Origin: Patescibacteria group bacterium | GTDB taxonomy: Bacteria; Patescibacteriota; Doudnabacteria; UBA920; O2-02-FULL-48-8 | Reading direction: 5' to 3' | NCBI GenBank assembly: GCA_036278915.1 | Contig: DASUKB010000001.1 | Coordinates: forward strand, 7,259-71,258 | Length of the DNA stretch: 64,000 nt | Shown here: positions 1,852 to 46,446 of the stretch, piece after piece | How positions within the stretch are numbered: the stretch's first letter is position 1 | Layout of the letters: each line of letters starts with the position of its first letter | Notes under the pieces: model-generated | What the model saw: the letters and a program-made list of their open reading frames with translations, nothing else | Told to the model about the DNA's origin: nothing | The model's database searches: none | Made by a program: the position numbers and the translations under genes

Positions 1852-2355
1852 ATGTACAGTCATTAAAAACCAAATTAAGGAGCAACTAAAAACACTCGGT
1901 TTTTGAGCAAATTTCTTTGATCCCTGTTGTTGTATGGGATATCGAGGAACACGAAAGGCTCGTGTTTTTTACTTGCTAAAGTGGTTTTGTGAAGTACCTT
2001 AACAATTGCATACCCAAGAATTATCAATTAGATAATCAGTCTCGCAAAGTGCGGGATCGACAACCAATTGCAGATAATTTATTGGGAATAAGACGCCGAA
2101 CCTTTTGCCGTCAAGCTAAAGGGGAGGCAAAGACGTCAATTACTTTGATTCTAGATTCCCGTTTACGGGAACAAAGGTTTGCAATTTGACCTTTTAAAAA
2201 AATAAATTGCGCCAGTTTAATCTGATTTCAGATTACACTCACAAAATTATGACCTCACTCTTTTATTAAAGGGAAAGAGGTTAGCAAATACGGCTCTGCC
2301 GGATTTGCGATGTAGGAGAAAACCGCTAGGTTGTCTCCTACACATAATTCATTGA

Positions 2356-2399
<44 letters not shown>

Positions 2400-2516
2400 G
2401 ACATGCAAGTCGAGTGGGTTTAGACCCACGGCGAACGGGTGAGTAATACCTGGGAACTTTCTTCTAGTTGAGGATATCCTCCCGAAAGGGAGAGCAATAC
2501 TCGATGTGCCCAGCCC

Positions 2517-2805
2517 TTTTCTTAGTTGTATAATGTTAATTATGTATTATGTATATATAATCAAACATGATCCTTCCGGAGATATCTATATTGGATTCTC
2601 GGACAATGTTGATGCGAGATTGACTGCTCATAACAATGGGCAAAATACCTCAACACGAAGATTGTCTGGCCAATGGATACTAACATACACAGAAGCTTAT
2701 CGTTCAGAGCAAGATGCTCGTGAAAGAGAACGAAAGCTGAAACAGTACGGAAGCGCCAAACAGAGATTACTAAAAAGGATCTCAAGAAGTTTTGGAAACT
2801 GAGAA
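2517..2805 (+). other. intervening sequence (IVS) in the 16S gene, closed by a 12-bp stem
   Basis: CCCAGCCCTTTT at 2508-2519 pairs with AAAAGGGCTGGG at 2806-2817; the AT-rich interior interrupts otherwise conserved 16S sequence. Confidence 0.75.
2533..2802 (+). CDS. small GIY-YIG nuclease-superfamily protein (YhbQ/UPF0213-like) encoded inside the 16S IVS
   Basis: YVYIIKHDPSGDIYIGFSDNVDARLTAHNNG followed by an E/R/K-rich helix matches the GIY-YIG core; start codon uncertain (GTG 2506, ATG 2533 or ATG 2542). Confidence 0.7.
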   Translation: MLIMYYVYIIKHDPSGDIYIGFSDNVDARLTAHNNGQNTSTRRLSGQWILTYTEAYRSEQDARERERKLKQYGSAKQRLLKRISRSFGN

Positions 2806-2935
2806 AAGGGCTGGGTAAAGCAGCAATGCGCTAGATGTGAGGCCCGGGCCCCATCAGCTAGTTGGTAGGGTAACGGCCTACCAAGGCTATGACGGGTAGC
2901 GGAAGCGAGAGCTTGATCCGCCACACTGGGACTGC

Positions 2936-2968
<33 letters not shown>

Positions 2969-3463
2969 TTGGAATTTTGGACAATGGGCGAAAGCCTGAT
3001 CCAGCGACGCCGCGTGCACGAAGAAGGCCTTCGGGTTGTAAAGTGCTTTTGCTTGGGAAAAATTTTTGATTGTACCAAGAGAATAAGAGGTTGCTAACTC
3101 TGTGCCAGCAGCAGCGGTAATACAGAGACCTCAAGCGTTATCCGGAATCATTGGGCGTAAAGCGTACCGATAGGTGGTTTTGCAAGTTTTGGGTAAAAGC
3201 CAGAAGCTCAACTTCTGCGTTTGCTCAAAATACTGCAATACTAGAGGGACAAAGAGGTTGCTGGAACGAACGGTGTAGTAGTGAAATGCGTTGATATCGT
3301 TCGGAACACCGAAAGCGAAGGCAGGCAACTGGGTGTCACCTGACACTGCTAGGACGAAAGCGTGGGGAGCGAATGGGATTAGATACCCCAGTAGTCCACG
3401 CTGTAAACGATGAGTGCTAGGAATGCGCGAGTATCGACCCTCGTGCGATCCGTAGCTAACGCG

Positions 3464-3560
<97 letters not shown>

Positions 3561-3970
3561 GTAAGCGAGGAACCTTACCAAGGCTTGACATTCTTCTGCA
3601 AGCGCACGGAAACGTGTGACCTTCGAGGGTGAAGAACAGGTGCTGCACGGTTGTCGTCAGCTCGTGTCGTGAGATGTTCCCTTAAGTGGGAGAACGAGCG
3701 CAACCCCCATGTTATGTTGATTTTCATAACAGACTGCCGGCGTTTAAGCTGGAGGAAGGCGGGGATGACGTCAAATCAGCGTGGCTCTTACGCCTTGGGC
3801 GACACACGTGCTACAATGGATAGGAACAATGGGACGCAACACCGTAAGGTAGAGCAAATCCTCTCAAAAACTATCCTCAGTTCAGATTGAGGGCTGCAAC
3901 TCGCCCTCATGAAGCTGGAATCGCTAGTAACCGCAAATCAGCCTCGTTGCGGTGAATACGTTCTCGGGTT

Positions 3971-4001
<31 letters not shown>

Positions 4002-4341
4002 GGTAAGTACCCAATATTTGCGCAAGCGAACGAAGGTAAGTATCATGACTGGGGTGAAGTCGTAACAAGGCATCGGTAGCGGAAGCTGTCGATGGATCAC
4101 CTCCTTTCTAAGGAGAATTCTGCAGAAACAGGAATCATTTCGATGAATCCTGCGGAGCAGTAATGATGGTCGATTCAGAATTGAAGCTCGCAAGAGCAGA
4201 TATTCTGAACACATCAAGACTCTGACGTTTATGTGGTTTTCGAAAGAGAATCGCAATCTTATTCCCAATAAATTGTCTGGAACCTGAAGGGTTTCTTATG
4301 ATGGAAAGCCTGGTGGCCTCACGGTCACAGGCTTTTTAAAT

Positions 4342-4364
4342 TGGTACGTACCACGTACGTACCA
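4342..4364. promoter_or_regulatory. dyad operator-like site TG-GTACGTAC-CAC-GTACGTAC-CA just after a -10-like TTAAAT
   Basis: two copies of the self-complementary octamer GTACGTAC spaced by 3 nt; the same architecture recurs at 49540-49562. Confidence 0.5.
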
Positions 4365-4427
4365 TGCCATTTTGCCATTTGGGCTCGCGACCTCGACAAA
4401 GTCGAGCGCCGGAGTTATGCTTGGGTT

Positions 4428-4991
4428 ATGTGGACAGAAGTTCTAAAATTTGTGGGCAGTATTGTCGGAGGCAGTGCCGTTCTTATAACAGCATTCACTT
4501 ACCTTTCCAAAAGGCTTATTGATCATCAGTTCACTAAAGAGATTGAAAAATTTAAAAGTGATCTTGTTATTGCTGCGAATAGAGATTCTACTACTTATAA
4601 AGAACTACACGCAAGACGAGCTGATGTCATTCACCAGCTTTATAAGAAAATAACTCGAACATATCGAGCGTATGAATCTTTAATTAACCCAATGCAATTT
4701 TTTAGTGAATTAAGCCCAGACGAAAAGAAAAAAATTGCCTCTGATGCATATAAAGACCTATTCCAATATTTTGATGAGAGACGCATATATTTTAAAGAGG
4801 AAATCGAGAATAAAATAGACCGTTTTACATCAGACATAATAAATATTAATAATGAATTTATTATGAAAGATTTCGTGTCCGTAACAAAAATTGAAAAATG
4901 GAATAAAGTCTGGATCAGATTAAAAGAAGAGACCCCAAAGATACAAAAAGAAATTAAAGACGAATTCAGATTAATCATGGGCATTAATTAA
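4428..4991 (+). CDS. hypothetical lysine-rich protein with one N-terminal TM helix and a helical cytoplasmic domain; low-GC (about 30%) gene
   Basis: ORF 4341-4991; probable start at MWTEVLKFVGSIVGGSAVLITAF; composition deviates strongly from the neighbours. Confidence 0.5.
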   Translation: MWTEVLKFVGSIVGGSAVLITAFTYLSKRLIDHQFTKEIEKFKSDLVIAANRDSTTYKELHARRADVIHQLYKKITRTYRAYESLINPMQFFSELSPDEKKKIASDAYKDLFQYFDERRIYFKEEIENKIDRFTSDIININNEFIMKDFVSVTKIEKWNKVWIRLKEETPKIQKEIKDEFRLIMGIN

Positions 4992-5036
4992 TTGCACTTT
5001 TATTGCTCGCGGTATCGGTGGGGTCTGATATCTAGT

Positions 5037-5064
5037 TTGCGTATACGCATGCGTATACGCAAAT
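5037..5064. repeat. 28-bp perfect palindrome TTTGCGTATACGCATGCGTATACGCAAA (two tandem GCGTATACGC palindromes)
   Basis: read directly; lies between the low-GC gene and the convergent small gene, with no U-tract on the + strand. Confidence 0.6.
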
Positions 5065-5096
5065 AAAAAATCGGCGGCTCTATGGAGAGTCGCCGG
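5064..5096 (-). terminator. rho-independent terminator for the minus-strand small gene
   Basis: hairpin CGGCGACTCTCCATAGAGCCGCCG followed by T-run on the minus strand. Confidence 0.65.
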
Positions 5097-5455: not shown

Positions 5456-5746
5456 ATGGAGGTTGTTCTATTCTTGGATACAGAGTACATCAAGGTCAAT
5501 CCTATAAGTCTAGGCCTTGAGCTTCCAGCGTTTCCGGACAAGTTTGTTTACATCCTTCCCAACTTAGATCAGGTTGGTCTTGAGGTGGAGACTATCGAGT
5601 TCTATCCTCAGAAGAATTTGTACGTTGTCGACCTGCGCCTGGGGGTTGGATTCCAAAATCTTGCATCGGAAGAGATGGTCTTCGATTATCTCCAAAAGTC
5701 AGGGTGGAAGAACTGGGAAGACATCGATCCTTCCGAGGAGGAGTGA
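5456..5746 (+). CDS. small acidic hypothetical protein (gene 1 of a 3-gene mini-operon)
   Basis: strong SD GTAGGAGGAGTTATG; stop 2 nt before the next start. Confidence 0.55.
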   Translation: MEVVLFLDTEYIKVNPISLGLELPAFPDKFVYILPNLDQVGLEVETIEFYPQKNLYVVDLRLGVGFQNLASEEMVFDYLQKSGWKNWEDIDPSEEE

Positions 5747-5748
5747 GG

Positions 5749-6075
5749 ATGACGAGGATCAAGTTGACCGCAGCCCAACTCAGCAATTTAGACGCTGGGA
5801 TTCTGAAGAAGTTTTTTGAAGCGTCAATGGAAGCTGTGCTAAGTGAACGCATGGCTGGTACCCACCAACGTGAAGGGCTCGAACTCAATTTTGAGGAGGC
5901 TGAGACTGCCTTGCGACGCCTGCAAGAAAGAAGGAAGCGCGCCGTGACGATTCAGCATCTGGTTAATGCTTTGCCCCGGAACGCTTGGGCCAAGGATTTG
6001 GCAGAGATTGCAAAAAAACACACGAGGCAGAAAAACAGGCCTTTCGAAATGCGTCTAGTCGAAAATGGCAAGTGA
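5749..6075 (+). CDS. small basic helical hypothetical protein (gene 2 of the mini-operon)
   Basis: SD GAGGAGGAGTGAGGATG; translationally coupled to gene 1. Confidence 0.55.
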   Translation: MTRIKLTAAQLSNLDAGILKKFFEASMEAVLSERMAGTHQREGLELNFEEAETALRRLQERRKRAVTIQHLVNALPRNAWAKDLAEIAKKHTRQKNRPFEMRLVENGK

Positions 6076-6086
6076 GGAGGAGTGAG

Positions 6087-6344
6087 ATGGTATTAGCTAA
6101 GATTTTCCGGCATGGACTAGGCGGTGAGCGAATCCTGGATAGTACATACTTCGTGGCTTGCGAAGATCCTAATGAAGTGAAAGGGATCATGAGGAAGTCA
6201 GGGTGCGATCCAGACCGTGGGTGGCGCACCGGCTATCACTATAGCGCAGAGGTCTCGATGCATCAGCCTATAACTCTCAAGAGTTTCCAGAATATCTTTC
6301 AAGAGCAATCGCCTAAGAAGAAAGTTGTTGGAAAGCGAAAATAA
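6087..6344 (+). CDS. small hypothetical protein (gene 3 of the mini-operon)
   Basis: SD GTGAGGAGGAGTGAGATG; followed by a tandem terminator. Confidence 0.5.
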   Translation: MVLAKIFRHGLGGERILDSTYFVACEDPNEVKGIMRKSGCDPDRGWRTGYHYSAEVSMHQPITLKSFQNIFQEQSPKKKVVGKRK

Positions 6345-6385
6345 TTAGAGTGTTCGCGTTGGACGTTCAAATGTTCCGCGAACAC

Positions 6386-6440
6386 CCGCCCGTACCGAAT
6401 AGTTATCGCTTAATTGCGGTACATTCGGGCGGGTTTTTTC
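6386..6440 (+). terminator. rho-independent terminator (second of two hairpins after the mini-operon)
   Basis: CCCGCCCGTACCGAAT...ATTCGGGCGGG followed by TTTTTTC; preceded by hairpin GTGTTCGCG...CGCGAACAC at 6351-6386. Confidence 0.75.
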
Positions 6441-6500
6441 TTGAAAAAATTTAATTAATATGTTATAGTAGGCTAGTAAAATCAATCATTCAGAAATAAA

Positions 6501-9413
6501 ATGATAAACAAATTTCAACGTTATAGTTTGCCCCTGACGGTTCTAGTTTTTGCTTTCGCTTATCTTTTGTTGGCGGCGCCGCACGCACACGCCGCAACCA
6601 ATTATTATGCCTCACCGGCTGATCAAGGCTTGGGAGATTGTTCATCGGCCGGCAACGCTTGCGATTTGTTGCAAGCGCTGACCGCGGCATTTAATAACAC
6701 GACTGATTCGACTGTAATGATGTCGGCCGGGACTTATGCCGGTTTTTTCAGTTTTGATACTTCCTTTGGCCATGTCTTCACCCTCACAGGAGCCGGAAAT
6801 GATGTGACTATAATTGAGCCGACAGGAAGCACTGGCATGGAAATTGGGACGCTATCCACTATCAGCATTAATGATGTCGCATTTGATAATAATGCCGACG
6901 GTCGGGGACTGACGATTGATTCTGAAGGGAGTTTGACTGTAAACGACTGCGTGTTCTCCGGTAATGCCGGCGGCGGCCTTATTGACACTCACTTCGCGAA
7001 TACCGGCAGCGTGAGCATCATCAACGACACATTTACCAATAACAGTTCCAGTGGCGATGGCGCGGCATTTTCCTTTACTGACAACGGTACGACTGCGGCT
7101 ATGCCGATCACGGTCTGGGATACCGATTTCGAGAATAATACCTCGACCGGTGGTTCGGGAGGAGCCATCTCTATTGGTTCCAACTCGAATTCTTCACCCG
7201 TATTGATTAGAAGCAATAATTTCAGCGGCAATACCGCGGCCAATATCGGCGGCGCTGTTTATGCTTTCACTACCGGTACAAATTCTGGAATTACTTTAGG
7301 CGATGGAGGGTTGGGGCATGACAACACGATTACCGATAATACAGCCCACGTGGACGCCGGTGGATTTTATATAGATACTGATGGCGACGGCAGTCCTGTC
7401 ACCATTGAAAATAACACTGTCGGTACGACAGGCCACGGCAATAGTTCCGGTGATTTCGGCGGCGGCGGTAAGGTTTTTGCTGGGTCTGGCCTCACCTTGA
7501 TTGGCAATACCTTTACGGATAATACCGCGGGAGGCAATGCCGGCGGCTTGGGCGTACTAATTGACAGAGACGACGGCAATACTTCCGATAATTCTATCGC
7601 CAACAACACTTTTACAAACAACACCGCGCACTTTGATGGCGGTGGCCTAAATCTGAGCGTAAGTTATGCGGGTAATTTAACTGTCGACGCCAACACTTTT
7701 ACAAACAACACCGCAACTACAGGAGAGGGCGGCGGCTTTCGGTTGCAGCAGTTTGCGTCTAGCTCGCAAGTGGTTGTGACCAACAATTTGCTCGTGAATA
7801 ATACCTCCGGTACGGAGTCTGGAGGGTTTGATTACTACGATCAATCATCCGCGGGTTTAGACTTTATCAACAACACAGTTGCCGACAATATCGCCGGGAA
7901 CAAAGTCGGTGGCGCGAATTTCGGAGTGGATAATATAACCGCCGATTTGAATATTTATAATAATATTTTTTGGGGAAACACCAGCAATTCCGCCCACGAC
8001 GTGCATATAGATCATTTCAACTTTGATGTGACAAAGTTCTATAACAACGATTCATTTGATTTTTGCCTGCACGTTGAAGCTCTTGACGAAGACAGTTGCT
8101 TCGACTCAACCGGTATGGCACCAAATTTTAACGGTGATGCGGGTGTTAACGGAGTTTATGATCTAGGGAGGGGCAATATAAAGGATGACCCGGAATTCAC
8201 AGATGCGGATAATGGCGACTACACGCTGACGGAATTCTCTCCGGCTTTGGATAGCGGGTTGGATACGGCTCCGAATTTGCCCGGGCACGATATTACCGGC
8301 AATGGCCGCATCCAACATACCCACGCAGATATGGGAGCGTATGAATTAATCATTCCGGCTCAAGATTTGGTTCCGTATGTTTTAACTGCCATAACTCCAA
8401 TCCCGGATCATGTGGATGGTACGACTGCAACTTATACTTTTTCCGCTACCGGAACCGGAGAAGCGGAATATGTAGCTCAAACATGCGGCGGGAGTTCCCA
8501 AGCCAGCATGACGGAGATTACGGATCATCCGGAGGCCCAGCAATTTATTGTCACCAATTTAACACCCGGTCAGACTTATTCATGCAATTTTGAGGTTTTA
8601 TCCATTGCTGGTTATTCCAACCAACTAGACGTGGGTCCGTTCACAGTAAATGATAACGGGGCTGTCCCCGTGCAATTTTTGATTGATCAAACAAGAGCCA
8701 CAGCGCATCCGGACGGTACGCTCGTGCTGGATGGCCAGACAGTGTACCTCATCAAAGACGGCAAACGGTATGGCTTCCGTGATCCGAGCGAATACGAATC
8801 CTACGGATACAACTTTAGCCAAGTGGTGCCAGCTAACGATTCCGACATCAGATTGGGATTTGATCCTGCAAATATTATGAAAGCCATGCCCGGGACATTG
8901 GTGCTGGACAAGTCCGACGGCCGCACCGTATATATGATTGGAGAAAATTATACCAAGCGTGGGTTTGTCTCATCTGCAGTGTTTAAAGATTTGGGGTATA
9001 CGTTTAAAAATCTGCCGACGATTGATTTGTCGGATTACCCGACCGGCCCTGCCGTTGACTCAGCAACAGATGCCCATCCGGAAGGGTCGCTCGTGTTGGA
9101 CAGCAAAACTGTCTGGTGGATTTTGAATGGCGTAAAGCTTGGATTTGAAAGCATGACTGTGTTTAATACCTACGGATTTTCCCTGAATCGCGTGGTCAAA
9201 GCGGACAGCTCAGATTTGGAGCTGCCCACGGGCAATCTGATTCCGTTGCGCGACGGCACACTTGTGCTAGATGGCGGAAATTATTATATAATCTCCGATG
9301 GCGCCAAACGCCAGTTTGCTACACCTGCGGCTCTATCCAACTGGGGTTATAAAAGTGGCAACGCGGTAAATACAACGATATCATCTTATCTAGATGGCCA
9401 GCTGATTAATTAA
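6501..9413 (+). CDS. giant secreted protein: signal peptide, long right-handed parallel beta-helix (pectin-lyase-fold) region, then four C-terminal 60-aa repeats
   Basis: N-terminal signal MINKFQRYSLPLTVLVFAFAYLLLAAPHAHA; many N-N-T-F-T-N-N-T-A/G-G-G repeats; four GTLVLDG..VY.I..G.R..F...F...GY.F repeats at the C-terminus. Confidence 0.7.
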   Translation: MINKFQRYSLPLTVLVFAFAYLLLAAPHAHAATNYYASPADQGLGDCSSAGNACDLLQALTAAFNNTTDSTVMMSAGTYAGFFSFDTSFGHVFTLTGAGNDVTIIEPTGSTGMEIGTLSTISINDVAFDNNADGRGLTIDSEGSLTVNDCVFSGNAGGGLIDTHFANTGSVSIINDTFTNNSSSGDGAAFSFTDNGTTAAMPITVWDTDFENNTSTGGSGGAISIGSNSNSSPVLIRSNNFSGNTAANIGGAVYAFTTGTNSGITLGDGGLGHDNTITDNTAHVDAGGFYIDTDGDGSPVTIENNTVGTTGHGNSSGDFGGGGKVFAGSGLTLIGNTFTDNTAGGNAGGLGVLIDRDDGNTSDNSIANNTFTNNTAHFDGGGLNLSVSYAGNLTVDANTFTNNTATTGEGGGFRLQQFASSSQVVVTNNLLVNNTSGTESGGFDYYDQSSAGLDFINNTVADNIAGNKVGGANFGVDNITADLNIYNNIFWGNTSNSAHDVHIDHFNFDVTKFYNNDSFDFCLHVEALDEDSCFDSTGMAPNFNGDAGVNGVYDLGRGNIKDDPEFTDADNGDYTLTEFSPALDSGLDTAPNLPGHDITGNGRIQHTHADMGAYELIIPAQDLVPYVLTAITPIPDHVDGTTATYTFSATGTGEAEYVAQTCGGSSQASMTEITDHPEAQQFIVTNLTPGQTYSCNFEVLSIAGYSNQLDVGPFTVNDNGAVPVQFLIDQTRATAHPDGTLVLDGQTVYLIKDGKRYGFRDPSEYESYGYNFSQVVPANDSDIRLGFDPANIMKAMPGTLVLDKSDGRTVYMIGENYTKRGFVSSAVFKDLGYTFKNLPTIDLSDYPTGPAVDSATDAHPEGSLVLDSKTVWWILNGVKLGFESMTVFNTYGFSLNRVVKADSSDLELPTGNLIPLRDGTLVLDGGNYYIISDGAKRQFATPAALSNWGYKSGNAVNTTISSYLDGQLIN

Positions 9414-21420: not shown

Positions 21421-21497
21421 GGGCGACTAGCTCAGGTGGTTAGAGCGCGTCACTGATAATGACGAGGTCGATGGTTCGAGTCCATCGTCGCCCACCA
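21421..21497 (+). tRNA. tRNA-Ile (anticodon GAU)
   Basis: cloverleaf GGGCGAC/GTCGCCC acceptor, anticodon loop CTGATAA, T-loop TTCGAGT, encoded CCA. Confidence 0.9.
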
Positions 21498-21526
21498 TTG
21501 GCGGATAAATATTTTAAAACCAAAAC

Positions 21527-21766
21527 ATGAGATTTATTTGGGGCCTCGTTTGGATAGCCATCGGCGTCGGCGTTATAAAATACAGTTTTCAAATTACGAA
21601 TTTTTTCGGACATGTGCCTTGGGCCGAACAGCATATCGGCGGCGGCGGCACTTACACAATGTATAAAATTGCCGGGATCGTAATTATAATATTCGCGTTT
21701 TTGTATATGTTCGGCAATACTGGATTTTTAACTGGCCGTCTGGCACCTCTTTTTGGCGGAGGCTAA
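21527..21766 (+). CDS. small 2-TM membrane protein, hypothetical
   Basis: two hydrophobic helices, Gly-rich ends. Confidence 0.4.
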   Translation: MRFIWGLVWIAIGVGVIKYSFQITNFFGHVPWAEQHIGGGGTYTMYKIAGIVIIIFAFLYMFGNTGFLTGRLAPLFGGG

Positions 21767-21830
21767 TGTTTTCTACGTGAATTAAAACGCCAGCGCGGTT
21801 TGATTTTGTGAGGAGCGGTATGTTCGGGGA

Positions 21831-21904
21831 GGGCCGTTAGCATAGTGGTAGTGCAGTCGGTTTGCATCCGACAGGCGCGAGTCCGATTCTCGCACGGTCC
21901 ACCA
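21831..21904 (+). tRNA. tRNA-Ala (anticodon UGC)
   Basis: anticodon loop TTTGCAT; G3:U70 alanine identity pair in the acceptor stem; encoded CCA. Confidence 0.8.
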
Positions 21905-29814: not shown

Positions 29815-29863
29815 GTTTACTTCTCTTCTCCAAGATTTTCTTGGAGAAGGATAGTGCACTTAA

Positions 29864-34371: not shown

Positions 34372-34557
34372 GGCCGCTCGGGCAGAAAAATTTTTCCCGA
34401 ACACAAAAATCCACTATTTGAATGTACTTCAAAGTGGATTTTTGTTCTATTGTGATTTCTTAAGAAATCACAAGGAGTCGGAAAAATTTTTCTGCCCTCG
34501 CTAAATAAATCATTATGTGTCCACATTGCGGCTGGCCTCGTTAAATAATTTTCAATG

Positions 34558-40888: not shown

Positions 40889-40920
40889 GAAAATGTACTT
40901 ACTTAAAATAAGTACATTTT
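40889..40920 (+). terminator. rho-independent terminator
   Basis: AATGTACTTAC-TTAAAA-TAAGTACATT then TTTT. Confidence 0.7.
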
Positions 40921-40939: not shown

Positions 40940-41124
40940 AGGATGTCCATTTCTTTTCTAGAAAAGAAATGGACGAAAGAAAAGTTGCGACACGGGAAAA
41001 AATTCCGGAATTCTTAGCTCGCTTTCGCTTATTGGTTGCGAAGGTTTTTTCGAACTCTCGTCGCGCGAGTCTGTTCGTCCGAAGCGCCGTAAATAAATCC
41101 TACGGCGCTTATTTTTTATAACAC

Positions 41125-41241: not shown

Positions 41242-41704
41242 TGGAACAAGCTAATGCCAAAACAAACAAAAACCTCAAGTTTTAACGTAAAAAATATGAA
41301 ATTCTCCAGCAACTCACTTCAACGAAAGGCGGTTATGTAAACTGGCGCTTTAGTTTGTGCCCAGAATTCAACCGCCGAAAGGCGTTTTTTTGTTCCTTAC
41401 AACTAACATCTAGAATTCAGTGCTTCACCGCATTGCTTGACTTTAAGCAGGTTCTGAAAGTAAGCACTGTATTCTGGATGTAAGCGGATAGAACTTTAAC
41501 AATTTACCGGCATCTAAGAGATATATTTTCAGTTTGCCAAACGTATGAGAGATGATGAGTCTCGAAGGTAGGCGTTTAGCAAAACATAAGTTAGTGCTTA
41601 TGAATATATCTGAATCCAAATCCTCGGCATTGTAACCGGGGTAACTCTGGCTTAACTGTCGGAGTATAAAAAATAGCAATCACTAATTGCTAGTCAAGAA
41701 TCTG

Positions 41705-45168
<3,464 letters not shown>

Positions 45169-45239
45169 TTAAATTTTTGACTAGCGTTTTGTGATTATTA
45201 TCACAAGTTCATTTACATCCCCGCTTTCGCGGGGACAAG

Positions 45240-46134: not shown

Positions 46135-46252
46135 TCTCCTCGTGCTTCAAGGGCCGCTGCCCCACCCGATCCCATCCCGAACTCGGAAGTGAAACGCGGC
46201 ACCGCTCATGATACTCCAGTGTAAGACTGGTGGGAAAGTAGGCAGTGCGGGG
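46135..46252 (+). rRNA. rrf: 5S ribosomal RNA
   Basis: CCACCCGATCCCATCCCGAACTCGGAAGTGAAACG loop C/helix III block and 3' GAGAGTAGG-like segment; boundaries approximate. Confidence 0.8.
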
Positions 46253-46446
46253 TTTTTTATTTATATTGAGGGACGAACCTACGGTTCTTCCCTCAACGCG
46301 CCGTCAGCAAAGCTGATTTTTGCTTCGCAAAAACAAGCGGCGCTGCTCCTTTCTCCCTTCTTAATTGACCTAATTGGTCTTTTTTGTTGTCCTAAAAAAT
46401 AGTGGCTTCGTTTAGAAAATTTTTTTGTGTTGGGCGAGGAAATTTG

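Follow-up and report, generated by a model that had tools for sequence, protein, structure and literature searches.

The window analysed here is a 64-kb stretch of a Patescibacteria (Candidate Phyla Radiation, CPR) metagenome-assembled genome (MAG) whose relatives are Candidatus Doudnabacteria. It carries a 16S ribosomal RNA (rRNA) gene and, as the first gene past it, a low-GC gene for a 187-residue membrane protein (VFX17_00055, carried by a 386-kb contig). A perfect dyad, TGGTACGTAC-CAC-GTACGTACCA, lies directly past a TTAAAT hexamer and ends 63 nt ahead of the ATG, and a 28-bp perfect palindrome, TTTGCGTATACGCATGCGTATACGCAAA, lies 44 nt past the stop codon (Table 1). On balance we lean towards the explanation that the low-GC gene is a solo membrane-protein gene acquired from elsewhere, while both dyads belong to the host.

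The upstream dyad is built from GTACGTAC, which occurs five times in the window against 0.29 expected. The core GTACGTAC-N3-GTACGTAC is present in exactly two copies in the window, and allowing up to three mismatches added none (shuffle expectation 0.06); dyad copies within the source genome were counted over these 64 kb. The second copy lies 45 kb from the first, 18 nt ahead of the ATG of a conserved, normal-GC gene for a PK_C-like protein (49579-50319). At both sites the core follows an A/T-rich hexamer at a spacing of 2 nt, and the proteins encoded downstream of the two dyads are unrelated.

The promoter of the PK_C-like gene can be compared with those of relatives, here designated by locus. 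In L159, which encodes an ortholog 66% identical to the PK_C-like protein, the terminator, the TTTTTTATTTGCTATACTTG block and the GAAACAAA-ATG leader are all identical to those of the twin site; the approximately 20 nt between TTTTTTATTTGCTATACTTG and GAAACAAA are non-palindromic, the dyad having been replaced. In L160 the same slot, after a TATAAT, is occupied by a different dyad. Aligned directly (window 49492-49541 and L159 9955-9985, approximate coordinates), a non-coding block of about 45 nt is near-identical and the following approximately 20 nt are wholly different. The block shared with L159 suggests a conserved promoter with a swappable control slot. Because this block is identical in L159 and a TATAAT stands at L160, the A/T hexamer is very likely a genuine -10 box. 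The slot past it would then be a variable, lineage-specific control position, with the same dyad placed at two genes in this genome.

We propose that the upstream (GTAC)2-N3-(GTAC)2 dyad may be the operator of one repressor covering the transcription start. The dyad recurs and keeps its spacing from the -10-like box at two sites; it is not conserved at the orthologous promoters of the relatives L159 and L160, and no regulator was found in the window. The dyad stands just past a -10-like box at each of two genes that are unrelated; as such an operator it would have put the foreign gene under the control of the host.

A tentative alternative, possible in our view although we give it clearly less credence, is that the upstream dyad works as RNA: its stem-loop of 9-10 bp would provide a back-up terminator or an insulator past the 16S terminator, or else an mRNA-stabilising 5' hairpin. 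Both copies stand directly past a terminator-like hairpin with a T-run, and TTAAAT itself doubles as the tail of such a hairpin (4302-4338). The genome is rich in perfect hairpins, other Patescibacteria and a MAG of UBA10199 have the same sequence after gene ends or between A and T runs, and the different hairpin at the orthologous position in L160 fits selection for structure over sequence. However, structure would not call for identical 8-nt arms at two sites, for which the chance is about 1e-3 given some 12 hairpins, and the L159 ortholog has no hairpin there. If TATACT and TTAAAT are -10 boxes, transcription would also start inside the first arm, leaving no hairpin in the mRNA.

Beyond the window, a scan of 185,579 genomes (596 Gb) for GTACGTAC-N3-GTACGTAC returned at least 115 scattered matches across all phyla, near chance level and forming no regulon; the window's own genome is absent among the matches listed, and the five Patescibacteria matches among those listed lie in unrelated contexts. 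In two haloarchaea (L017 5365-5383 and L112 7037-7055) the same dyad precedes, by 3-4 nt, an orthologous 100-residue gene of ribbon-helix-helix (RHH)/CopG-like type, where it is probably an autoregulatory operator. The resemblance to CopG-type operators extends to the tandem self-complementary units, which would suit RHH dimers of dimers. The window differs in having no RHH homologue, a tblastn search of it for relatives of the haloarchaeal RHH protein being negative; we take the haloarchaeal link as a lead on the type of protein, not as evidence for this genome.

Three further observations concern the same motif. In L112, CRISPR-like spaced repeats (AGAGACACCCCTCGTTCAGA) lie on the other side of the dyad. 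The deltaproteobacterial MAG HK-STAS-UBA10199-2 holds at least six copies of AAAAA-GTACGTAC-N3-GTACGTAC-TTTTT on different contigs (L031, L056, L058, L075, L077, L117), a repetitive element that resembles a terminator and keeps its stem sequence fixed. Three copies of TGTACGTACAATGTACGTACA occur in a Chloroflexota MAG (L038, L084, L124). Restriction-site avoidance was considered and dropped, as GTAC is not under-represented (observed/expected 1.02).

The low-GC gene itself stands out sharply in composition. Its start codon is backed by a groundwater homologue that shares the initial ten residues, MWTEVLKFVG, and GGAG, a consensus match, lies 13 nt ahead of it (4411-4414). The GC content of the gene is 31.7%, and that of its third codon positions (GC3) is 27.7%, against means of 47.4% (standard deviation (SD) 3.6) and 51.5% (SD 6.4) for the 37 long open reading frames (ORFs) of the window. 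It forms the most AT-rich 564-bp stretch of all 64 kb (z = -4.4; the runner-up is at 36.5%), and its synonymous sites deviate as strongly as the gene overall. The AT-rich composition is confined to the coding region; both dyads and their flanks are host-like in GC. Lysine and isoleucine each make up 11.8% of the protein, and the residues F, Y, I, N and K together 39%, the top value among the 37 ORFs.

The protein is, by sequence comparison, a member of a large unnamed family and not an orphan. An exhaustive HMMER search across bacteria and archaea gave 1,388 representatives of 50%-identity clusters at E <= 1e-3, of which 326 reach E <= 1e-10. Members have about 190 residues, with nearly all falling in the range 180-220, and align end to end. 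The family alignment shows a hydrophobic N-terminal helix, a juxtamembrane LSKDxExFK motif, an LHxxRAxVI motif and a C-terminal FRxxLG motif, with near-invariant positions at E40, K43, L46, R64, F180, R181 and G185. The window protein has no match in Pfam, PADLOC or PHROGs, and searches of NCBIfam and Pfam with 73 relatives gave no family match. A sequence profile search of the PDB gave no match beyond a borderline FliS, and tblastn against cultured phages found nothing; among viral models, one protein of an uncultured siphovirus is alike over its full length (E 2e-6, TM-score 0.70).

An AlphaFold2 model built from a 43-sequence alignment (predicted local distance difference test 89, predicted template modelling score 0.70) contains one long helix, residues 2-86, which holds the membrane segment and continues into an up-down four-helix bundle. 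By this topology, the end of the bundle nearest the membrane would bring together the conserved juxtamembrane residues and the conserved C-terminus. The bundle is probably cytoplasmic, judged by the K/R-rich stretch past the membrane helix.

The homologue is a solo ORF at every retrieved locus, with no conserved partner, and in L002, L004, L005 and L012 it lies 12-16 GC points under its flanks. Plasmid-borne members occur in Haloferax, Bacillus mycoides and Synechococcus; the neighbours are prophage-like genes on the Bacillus mycoides plasmid and unannotated genes on the other two. The L010/L011 ORF is flanked on either side by an attC-like site, the two being 99 and 128 nt long and sharing GTATAAC...GTTATAC cores; the next attC begins 17 nt 3' of the ORF in L010, and a third attC-like site, ending in the classical GTTAGGC, lies past the next gene. 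The L010 array (three attC-like sites with GTATAAC cores at 5692-7465 of a low-GC, 37%, contig of assembly GCA_016294905.1) is, by this architecture, an integron or a cassette array of the kind called CALIN (cluster of attC sites lacking integron-integrases). The cassette past the family member encodes a 191-residue protein that matches no family. The ORFs of L153 and L012 begin 20-25 nt past a GTTAGGT core that closes an imperfect palindrome.

On the attC-like sites, at least three independent family members are integron cassettes; such sites were found in full for the L010/L011 homologues and in part for those of L153 and L012. In these loci, as in known integron cassettes, the family ORF is single and begins about 20 nt past the attC R' core (GTTATAC or GTTAGGT). 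Like many cassettes, these members have a higher AT content than their hosts and lie next to toxin-antitoxin cassettes. In contrast, the window copy lies beside an rRNA gene in Patescibacteria and not in an array, and a scan of the window for attC-like sites found nothing near 4.3-5.1 kb. No integrase was seen in the ORF list around the locus, beyond which no search was made. As a candidate attC, the 28-bp palindrome was rejected: it is too short, perfect, and without AAC/GTT cores.

Because the synonymous sites are deviant, homologues are AT-rich islands elsewhere and several of them are integron cassettes, the low-GC gene is very probably a horizontally acquired compositional island. It seems improbable that it encodes a long-resident membrane protein and owes its low GC to amino-acid makeup (K, I, N, F) or to selection for weak expression. 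The protein's high content of FYINK residues would fit such an origin, as would a closest homologue too distant to suggest that a sampled donor passed the gene on recently. Yet GC3, which is largely free of amino-acid constraint, deviates as given above, the family is patchy over bacteria and archaea, on plasmids and in integron cassettes, and its members are AT-rich islands in several unrelated hosts. Thus the picture drawn by an initial annotation of this DNA, of a horizontally acquired low-GC gene next to the 16S gene with a lysine-rich, single-pass, helical product, is borne out by the GC and codon-position comparison over the window and by the predicted fold. The occurrence of many similar low-GC genes, raised there as a possible objection, was not observed among the 564-bp stretches of the window.

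The neighbours of the homologues include a variety of conflict genes. A HigB/HTH_3 pair lies directly upstream of the homologue in L004, and HepT/MNT lies 3.5 kb away in L005. A GmrSD-like HEC-05 gene adjoins it in L153, a DUF2971/PDC-S31 gene in L001, and a gene for a 1,388-residue DEAD/DUF559 helicase neighbours it in L008. In L007, DrmB and DrmC (DISARM), RT_UG21, a distant family member and a reverse transcriptase-associated RmuC form a tight co-directional run, with OLD/AAA_15 further on; this run may be an undescribed multi-gene UG21 system. Between the family member and the RmuC-like gene (L007 3293-11471) lies a gene for a 414-residue unknown, whose start overlaps the stop of the family member. 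Two contexts that are otherwise unrelated, the metagenomic contig of L010 (3604-5373) and a Synechococcus elongatus plasmid (L162 4909-5505), have a gene for a HEAT-repeat protein shortly before the family member, which may be coincidence. From this small sample, guilt by association would place the family among the mobile accessory genes of the conflict/defence gene pool.

Among described defence proteins, the closest comparison is with Drt1b/RTasTM, the transmembrane (TM) partner of UG1/UG5 defence reverse transcriptases, which was described as cluster 85/1858 (PMC9226505) and accompanies about 18% of drt1 genes (PMC13275509). Both have about 200 residues and an N-terminal TM helix, and the distant family member in L007 lies directly past the RT_UG21 gene in a DISARM island. 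The PADLOC RTasTM model (PDLC03799) is matched weakly by 15 of 73 family members (best E 5.4e-6). Unlike Drt1b, most family members are solo, and no reverse transcriptase lies near the window gene, whose neighbours are the 16S gene and small unrelated ORFs in place of a UG1/UG5 reverse transcriptase-nitrilase. We rejected the window protein as an RTasTM, since it does not match the model and the match of its relatives is partial (profile positions 2-61 of 229).

Other helical membrane proteins resemble the family less. Csx28, the Cas13b accessory membrane pore (PDB 8GI1), ranked 38th among many generic helical-bundle matches; no relation to it was found at the sequence level, and the window gene has no CRISPR-Cas context. 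The bundles of 4HB_MCP, TorS and NarQ sensors differ in lying between two TM helices and feeding a kinase or methyl-accepting chemotaxis protein output. A sensor four-helix bundle was rejected, as the window protein has one TM helix and ends at the bundle and no Pfam 4HB was found among 73 members, and so was the LemA family (N-terminal TM helix and helical bundle, about 190 residues), for which there was no Pfam LemA match.

Taken together, these observations point to a stand-alone accessory gene that would have been acquired horizontally and landed in the 3' flank of an isolated 16S gene. Its product would be held in the membrane by the single N-terminal helix, with the four-helix bundle probably in the cytoplasm. 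Members of the family appear to travel singly, in some cases at least as integron cassettes, and to gather in variable regions rich in defence and toxin-antitoxin genes. Its likeliest role would be that of a membrane-acting conflict protein, a phage-exclusion or abortive-infection-type effector or accessory; for the window protein, a role in phage exclusion, abortive infection or as a toxin is plausible but unproven. A bolder version, which we rate as unlikely in its entirety, makes the family a new and widespread single-gene membrane-acting module for exclusion or anti-phage action (an anchor and a bundle with a conserved juxtamembrane site) that is spread by integrons, is occasionally recruited by defence reverse transcriptases, and would in this ultra-small genome be under a lineage-specific repressor shared with the PK_C-like gene.

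Several points weigh against this interpretation. The insertion is deduced from composition, and the window shows no insertion scars, attC sites or direct repeats marking it. When metagenomes were scanned with the 970-residue protein encoded nearby, all relatives found were at most 34% identical. The closest homologue of the low-GC protein is just 38% identical, and therefore no donor can be named. For the defence association, the contexts comprise about a dozen genomic loci, taken without statistics; those of L010, L012 and L128 show no defence genes. The window protein matched no defence model of PADLOC-DB 2.0 (E <= 1), and the RTasTM similarity of its relatives is limited to residues ~4-62, which comprise the TM helix and the ~40 residues past it. 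At the promoter, the TTAAAT box has neither a -35 nor a TG element, and an alternative promoter-like consensus match, TCGACA-17-TATGCT, lies downstream of the dyad in the leader. Two perfect dyad copies with no degenerate ones are unusual for a regulon, and no cognate regulator of the upstream dyad was identified. Finally, the downstream palindrome has no U-tract, hence is no canonical terminator.

If the family does consist of conflict or defence proteins, its about 1,400 sequence clusters would make up a very common module that has no name and no entry in Pfam, NCBIfam or PADLOC, and the window would hold a rare case of such a gene in a CPR genome. To our knowledge, known defence systems are scarce in these genomes. 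The twin GTAC dyads are among very few candidate cis-regulatory elements in Patescibacteria pinned to promoters via relatives. Should none of these readings hold, the locus would amount to an ordinary hypothetical gene of horizontal origin between hairpins of the host. We consider the large unnamed family, linked here to integron cassettes and defence islands, to be the part most worth following up.

The initial annotation had gone further and read the two palindromes as a regulatory bracket. Under that proposal the locus would be a self-contained, tightly regulated cassette in which both palindromes are operators of a dedicated regulator of a toxic membrane effector, and all three parts arrived together. 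We regard this as very improbable. Both dyads are indeed perfect, far beyond chance, and flank the gene closely on either side; both alternate strictly between purine and pyrimidine in tandem self-complementary units with an 11-12 bp period, which would suit two adjacent protein dimers. However, no comparable dyads were found at 11 homologous loci, within 220 nt before and 150 nt after the ORF, and the upstream dyad is copied exactly at an unrelated, conserved gene of normal GC. The palindrome lies in a 3'-3' convergent spacer, away from promoters, no regulator is adjacent, the small neighbouring ORFs have no match to a DNA-binding family, and the dyads and flanks do not share the low GC of the gene. 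Because no such dyads stand at the 11 homologous loci and an exact twin stands at an unrelated conserved gene, we conclude that both dyads are probably features of the host lineage and not part of the low-GC gene. What stands of the bracket is its elements: the upstream dyad lies at 4342-4364 directly past TTAAAT, and the palindrome has the sequence and symmetry described for it and no U-tract, with its coordinates moved from 5037-5064 to 5036-5063. Searching the window for further sites gave the GTAC-dyad twin, and the palindrome proved unique.

The palindrome is more readily understood as one of many host hairpins. The window contains about 12 perfect hairpins whose stems measure 11 bp or more, all intergenic, most directly 3' of ORFs and about half without a U-tract. 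Examples, with stems of 11-16 bp and each of different sequence, lie at 29825-29849, 34450-34473, 40945-40974, 51605-51634 and 54567-54600. The palindrome occupies the spacer between convergent genes, at no promoter and 8 nt from the terminator hairpin of the minus-strand gene, with which it folds into a tandem hairpin on either strand; another tandem pair is formed by the hairpins at 40890-40920 and 40945-40974. Its 24-nt core was found 0 times in shuffles. The hairpin upstream of dnaG (51605-51634) is not conserved in the relatives L160 and L161. Since it is like the other perfect intergenic hairpins of the genome and stands in tandem with a terminator, the palindrome may be a 3' stem-loop for transcript-end formation or protection. 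As an intrinsic terminator in its own right it was rejected: the hairpin forms, but what follows it is UAAAAAA in the plus-strand reading and CUAGAUA in the minus-strand reading, and the terminator scan made no call for it.

Least probable of all is that the palindrome is a tyrosine-recombinase core (dif- or lox-like, with 11-bp arms and a 6-bp centre) marking an integration boundary: its 28 bp equal the 11 + 6 + 11 bp architecture of the dif sites of XerCD and it abuts the sole compositional island of the window, but its GCATGC centre is symmetric, which is unusual for directional recombination sites, the cumulative GC skew climbs steadily through it with no switch, no second related core lies across the gene (the upstream dyad being unrelated in sequence), the viral contigs searched hold no copy of it, and no adjacent integrase was noticed in the ORF list.

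Table 1. Features of the low-GC locus, its twin dyad site and the rRNA setting in the 64-kb window.
Feature	Position	Strand	Description
16S rRNA gene	2349-4107	+	Rfam SSU_rRNA_bacteria, 1380 bits; unlinked from the 23S gene
GIY-YIG ORF inside 16S insertion	2542-2799		Pfam GIY-YIG, E 5e-15
Terminator-like hairpin and T-run	4302-4338	+	RNA fold; ends the 16S transcription unit
TTAAAT, -10-like hexamer	4336-4341	+	2 nt upstream of the dyad core; from sequence
First dyad site	4336-4364		TTAAAT-TG-GTACGTAC-CAC-GTACGTAC-CA
Upstream dyad	4342-4364	.	TGGTACGTAC-CAC-GTACGTACCA; 10-bp perfect arms; core GTACGTAC-N3-GTACGTAC at 4344-4362
Tandem direct repeat	4365-4380	+	TGCCATTT x2, exact; directly past the upstream dyad; read from sequence
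Leader of the low-GC gene	4392-4427	+	Small hairpin CTCGAC-AAA-GTCGAG; consensus matches only
Low-GC gene, 187 residues	4428-4991	+	ATG at 4428, TAA at 4989-4991; NCBI hypothetical protein VFX17_00055 / HEX5429462.1
28-bp perfect palindrome	5036-5063	.	TTTGCGTATACGCATGCGTATACGCAAA = TT + (TGCGTATACGCA)x2 + AA; unique in the window; no U-tract on either strand
Intrinsic terminator of the convergent gene	5065-5095	-	Hairpin 5072-5095, T-run 5065-5070 on the minus strand; from sequence and folds
Convergent ORF, 67 residues	5080-5283	-	No family match
tRNA-Ile and tRNA-Ala	21421-21904		Separated from the 16S gene by ~17 kb of protein genes
23S rRNA gene	41704-45172		~20 kb beyond the tRNAs; ~540 nt longer than the model
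5S rRNA gene	46138-46253		
Twin dyad site	49534-49562	+	TG-n-TATACT (extended -10-like), TG, GTACGTAC-GCC-GTACGTAC at 49542-49560; in full TATACT-TG-GTACGTAC-GCC-GTACGTAC-GG

A neighbouring gene has orthologues annotated in Candidatus Doudnabacteria. Although unlinked, the rRNA genes keep their canonical order across 44 kb (2349-46253). The 16S gene measures 1,759 nt against 1,533 positions of the model, and its insert looks like an intervening sequence with a homing-endonuclease-type gene; intervening sequences of this kind are common in CPR rRNA genes. Past the 16S gene, the terminator scan of the window gave a match at 4313-4328, followed by AGGCTTTTTA. Pairing computed between leader and trailer of the 16S gene was set aside as uninformative at such lengths. 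An Rfam search found no family at the low-GC locus, and Rfam holds none for attC. The 23S gene contains an inverted repeat with 36-nt arms at 43669-43742.

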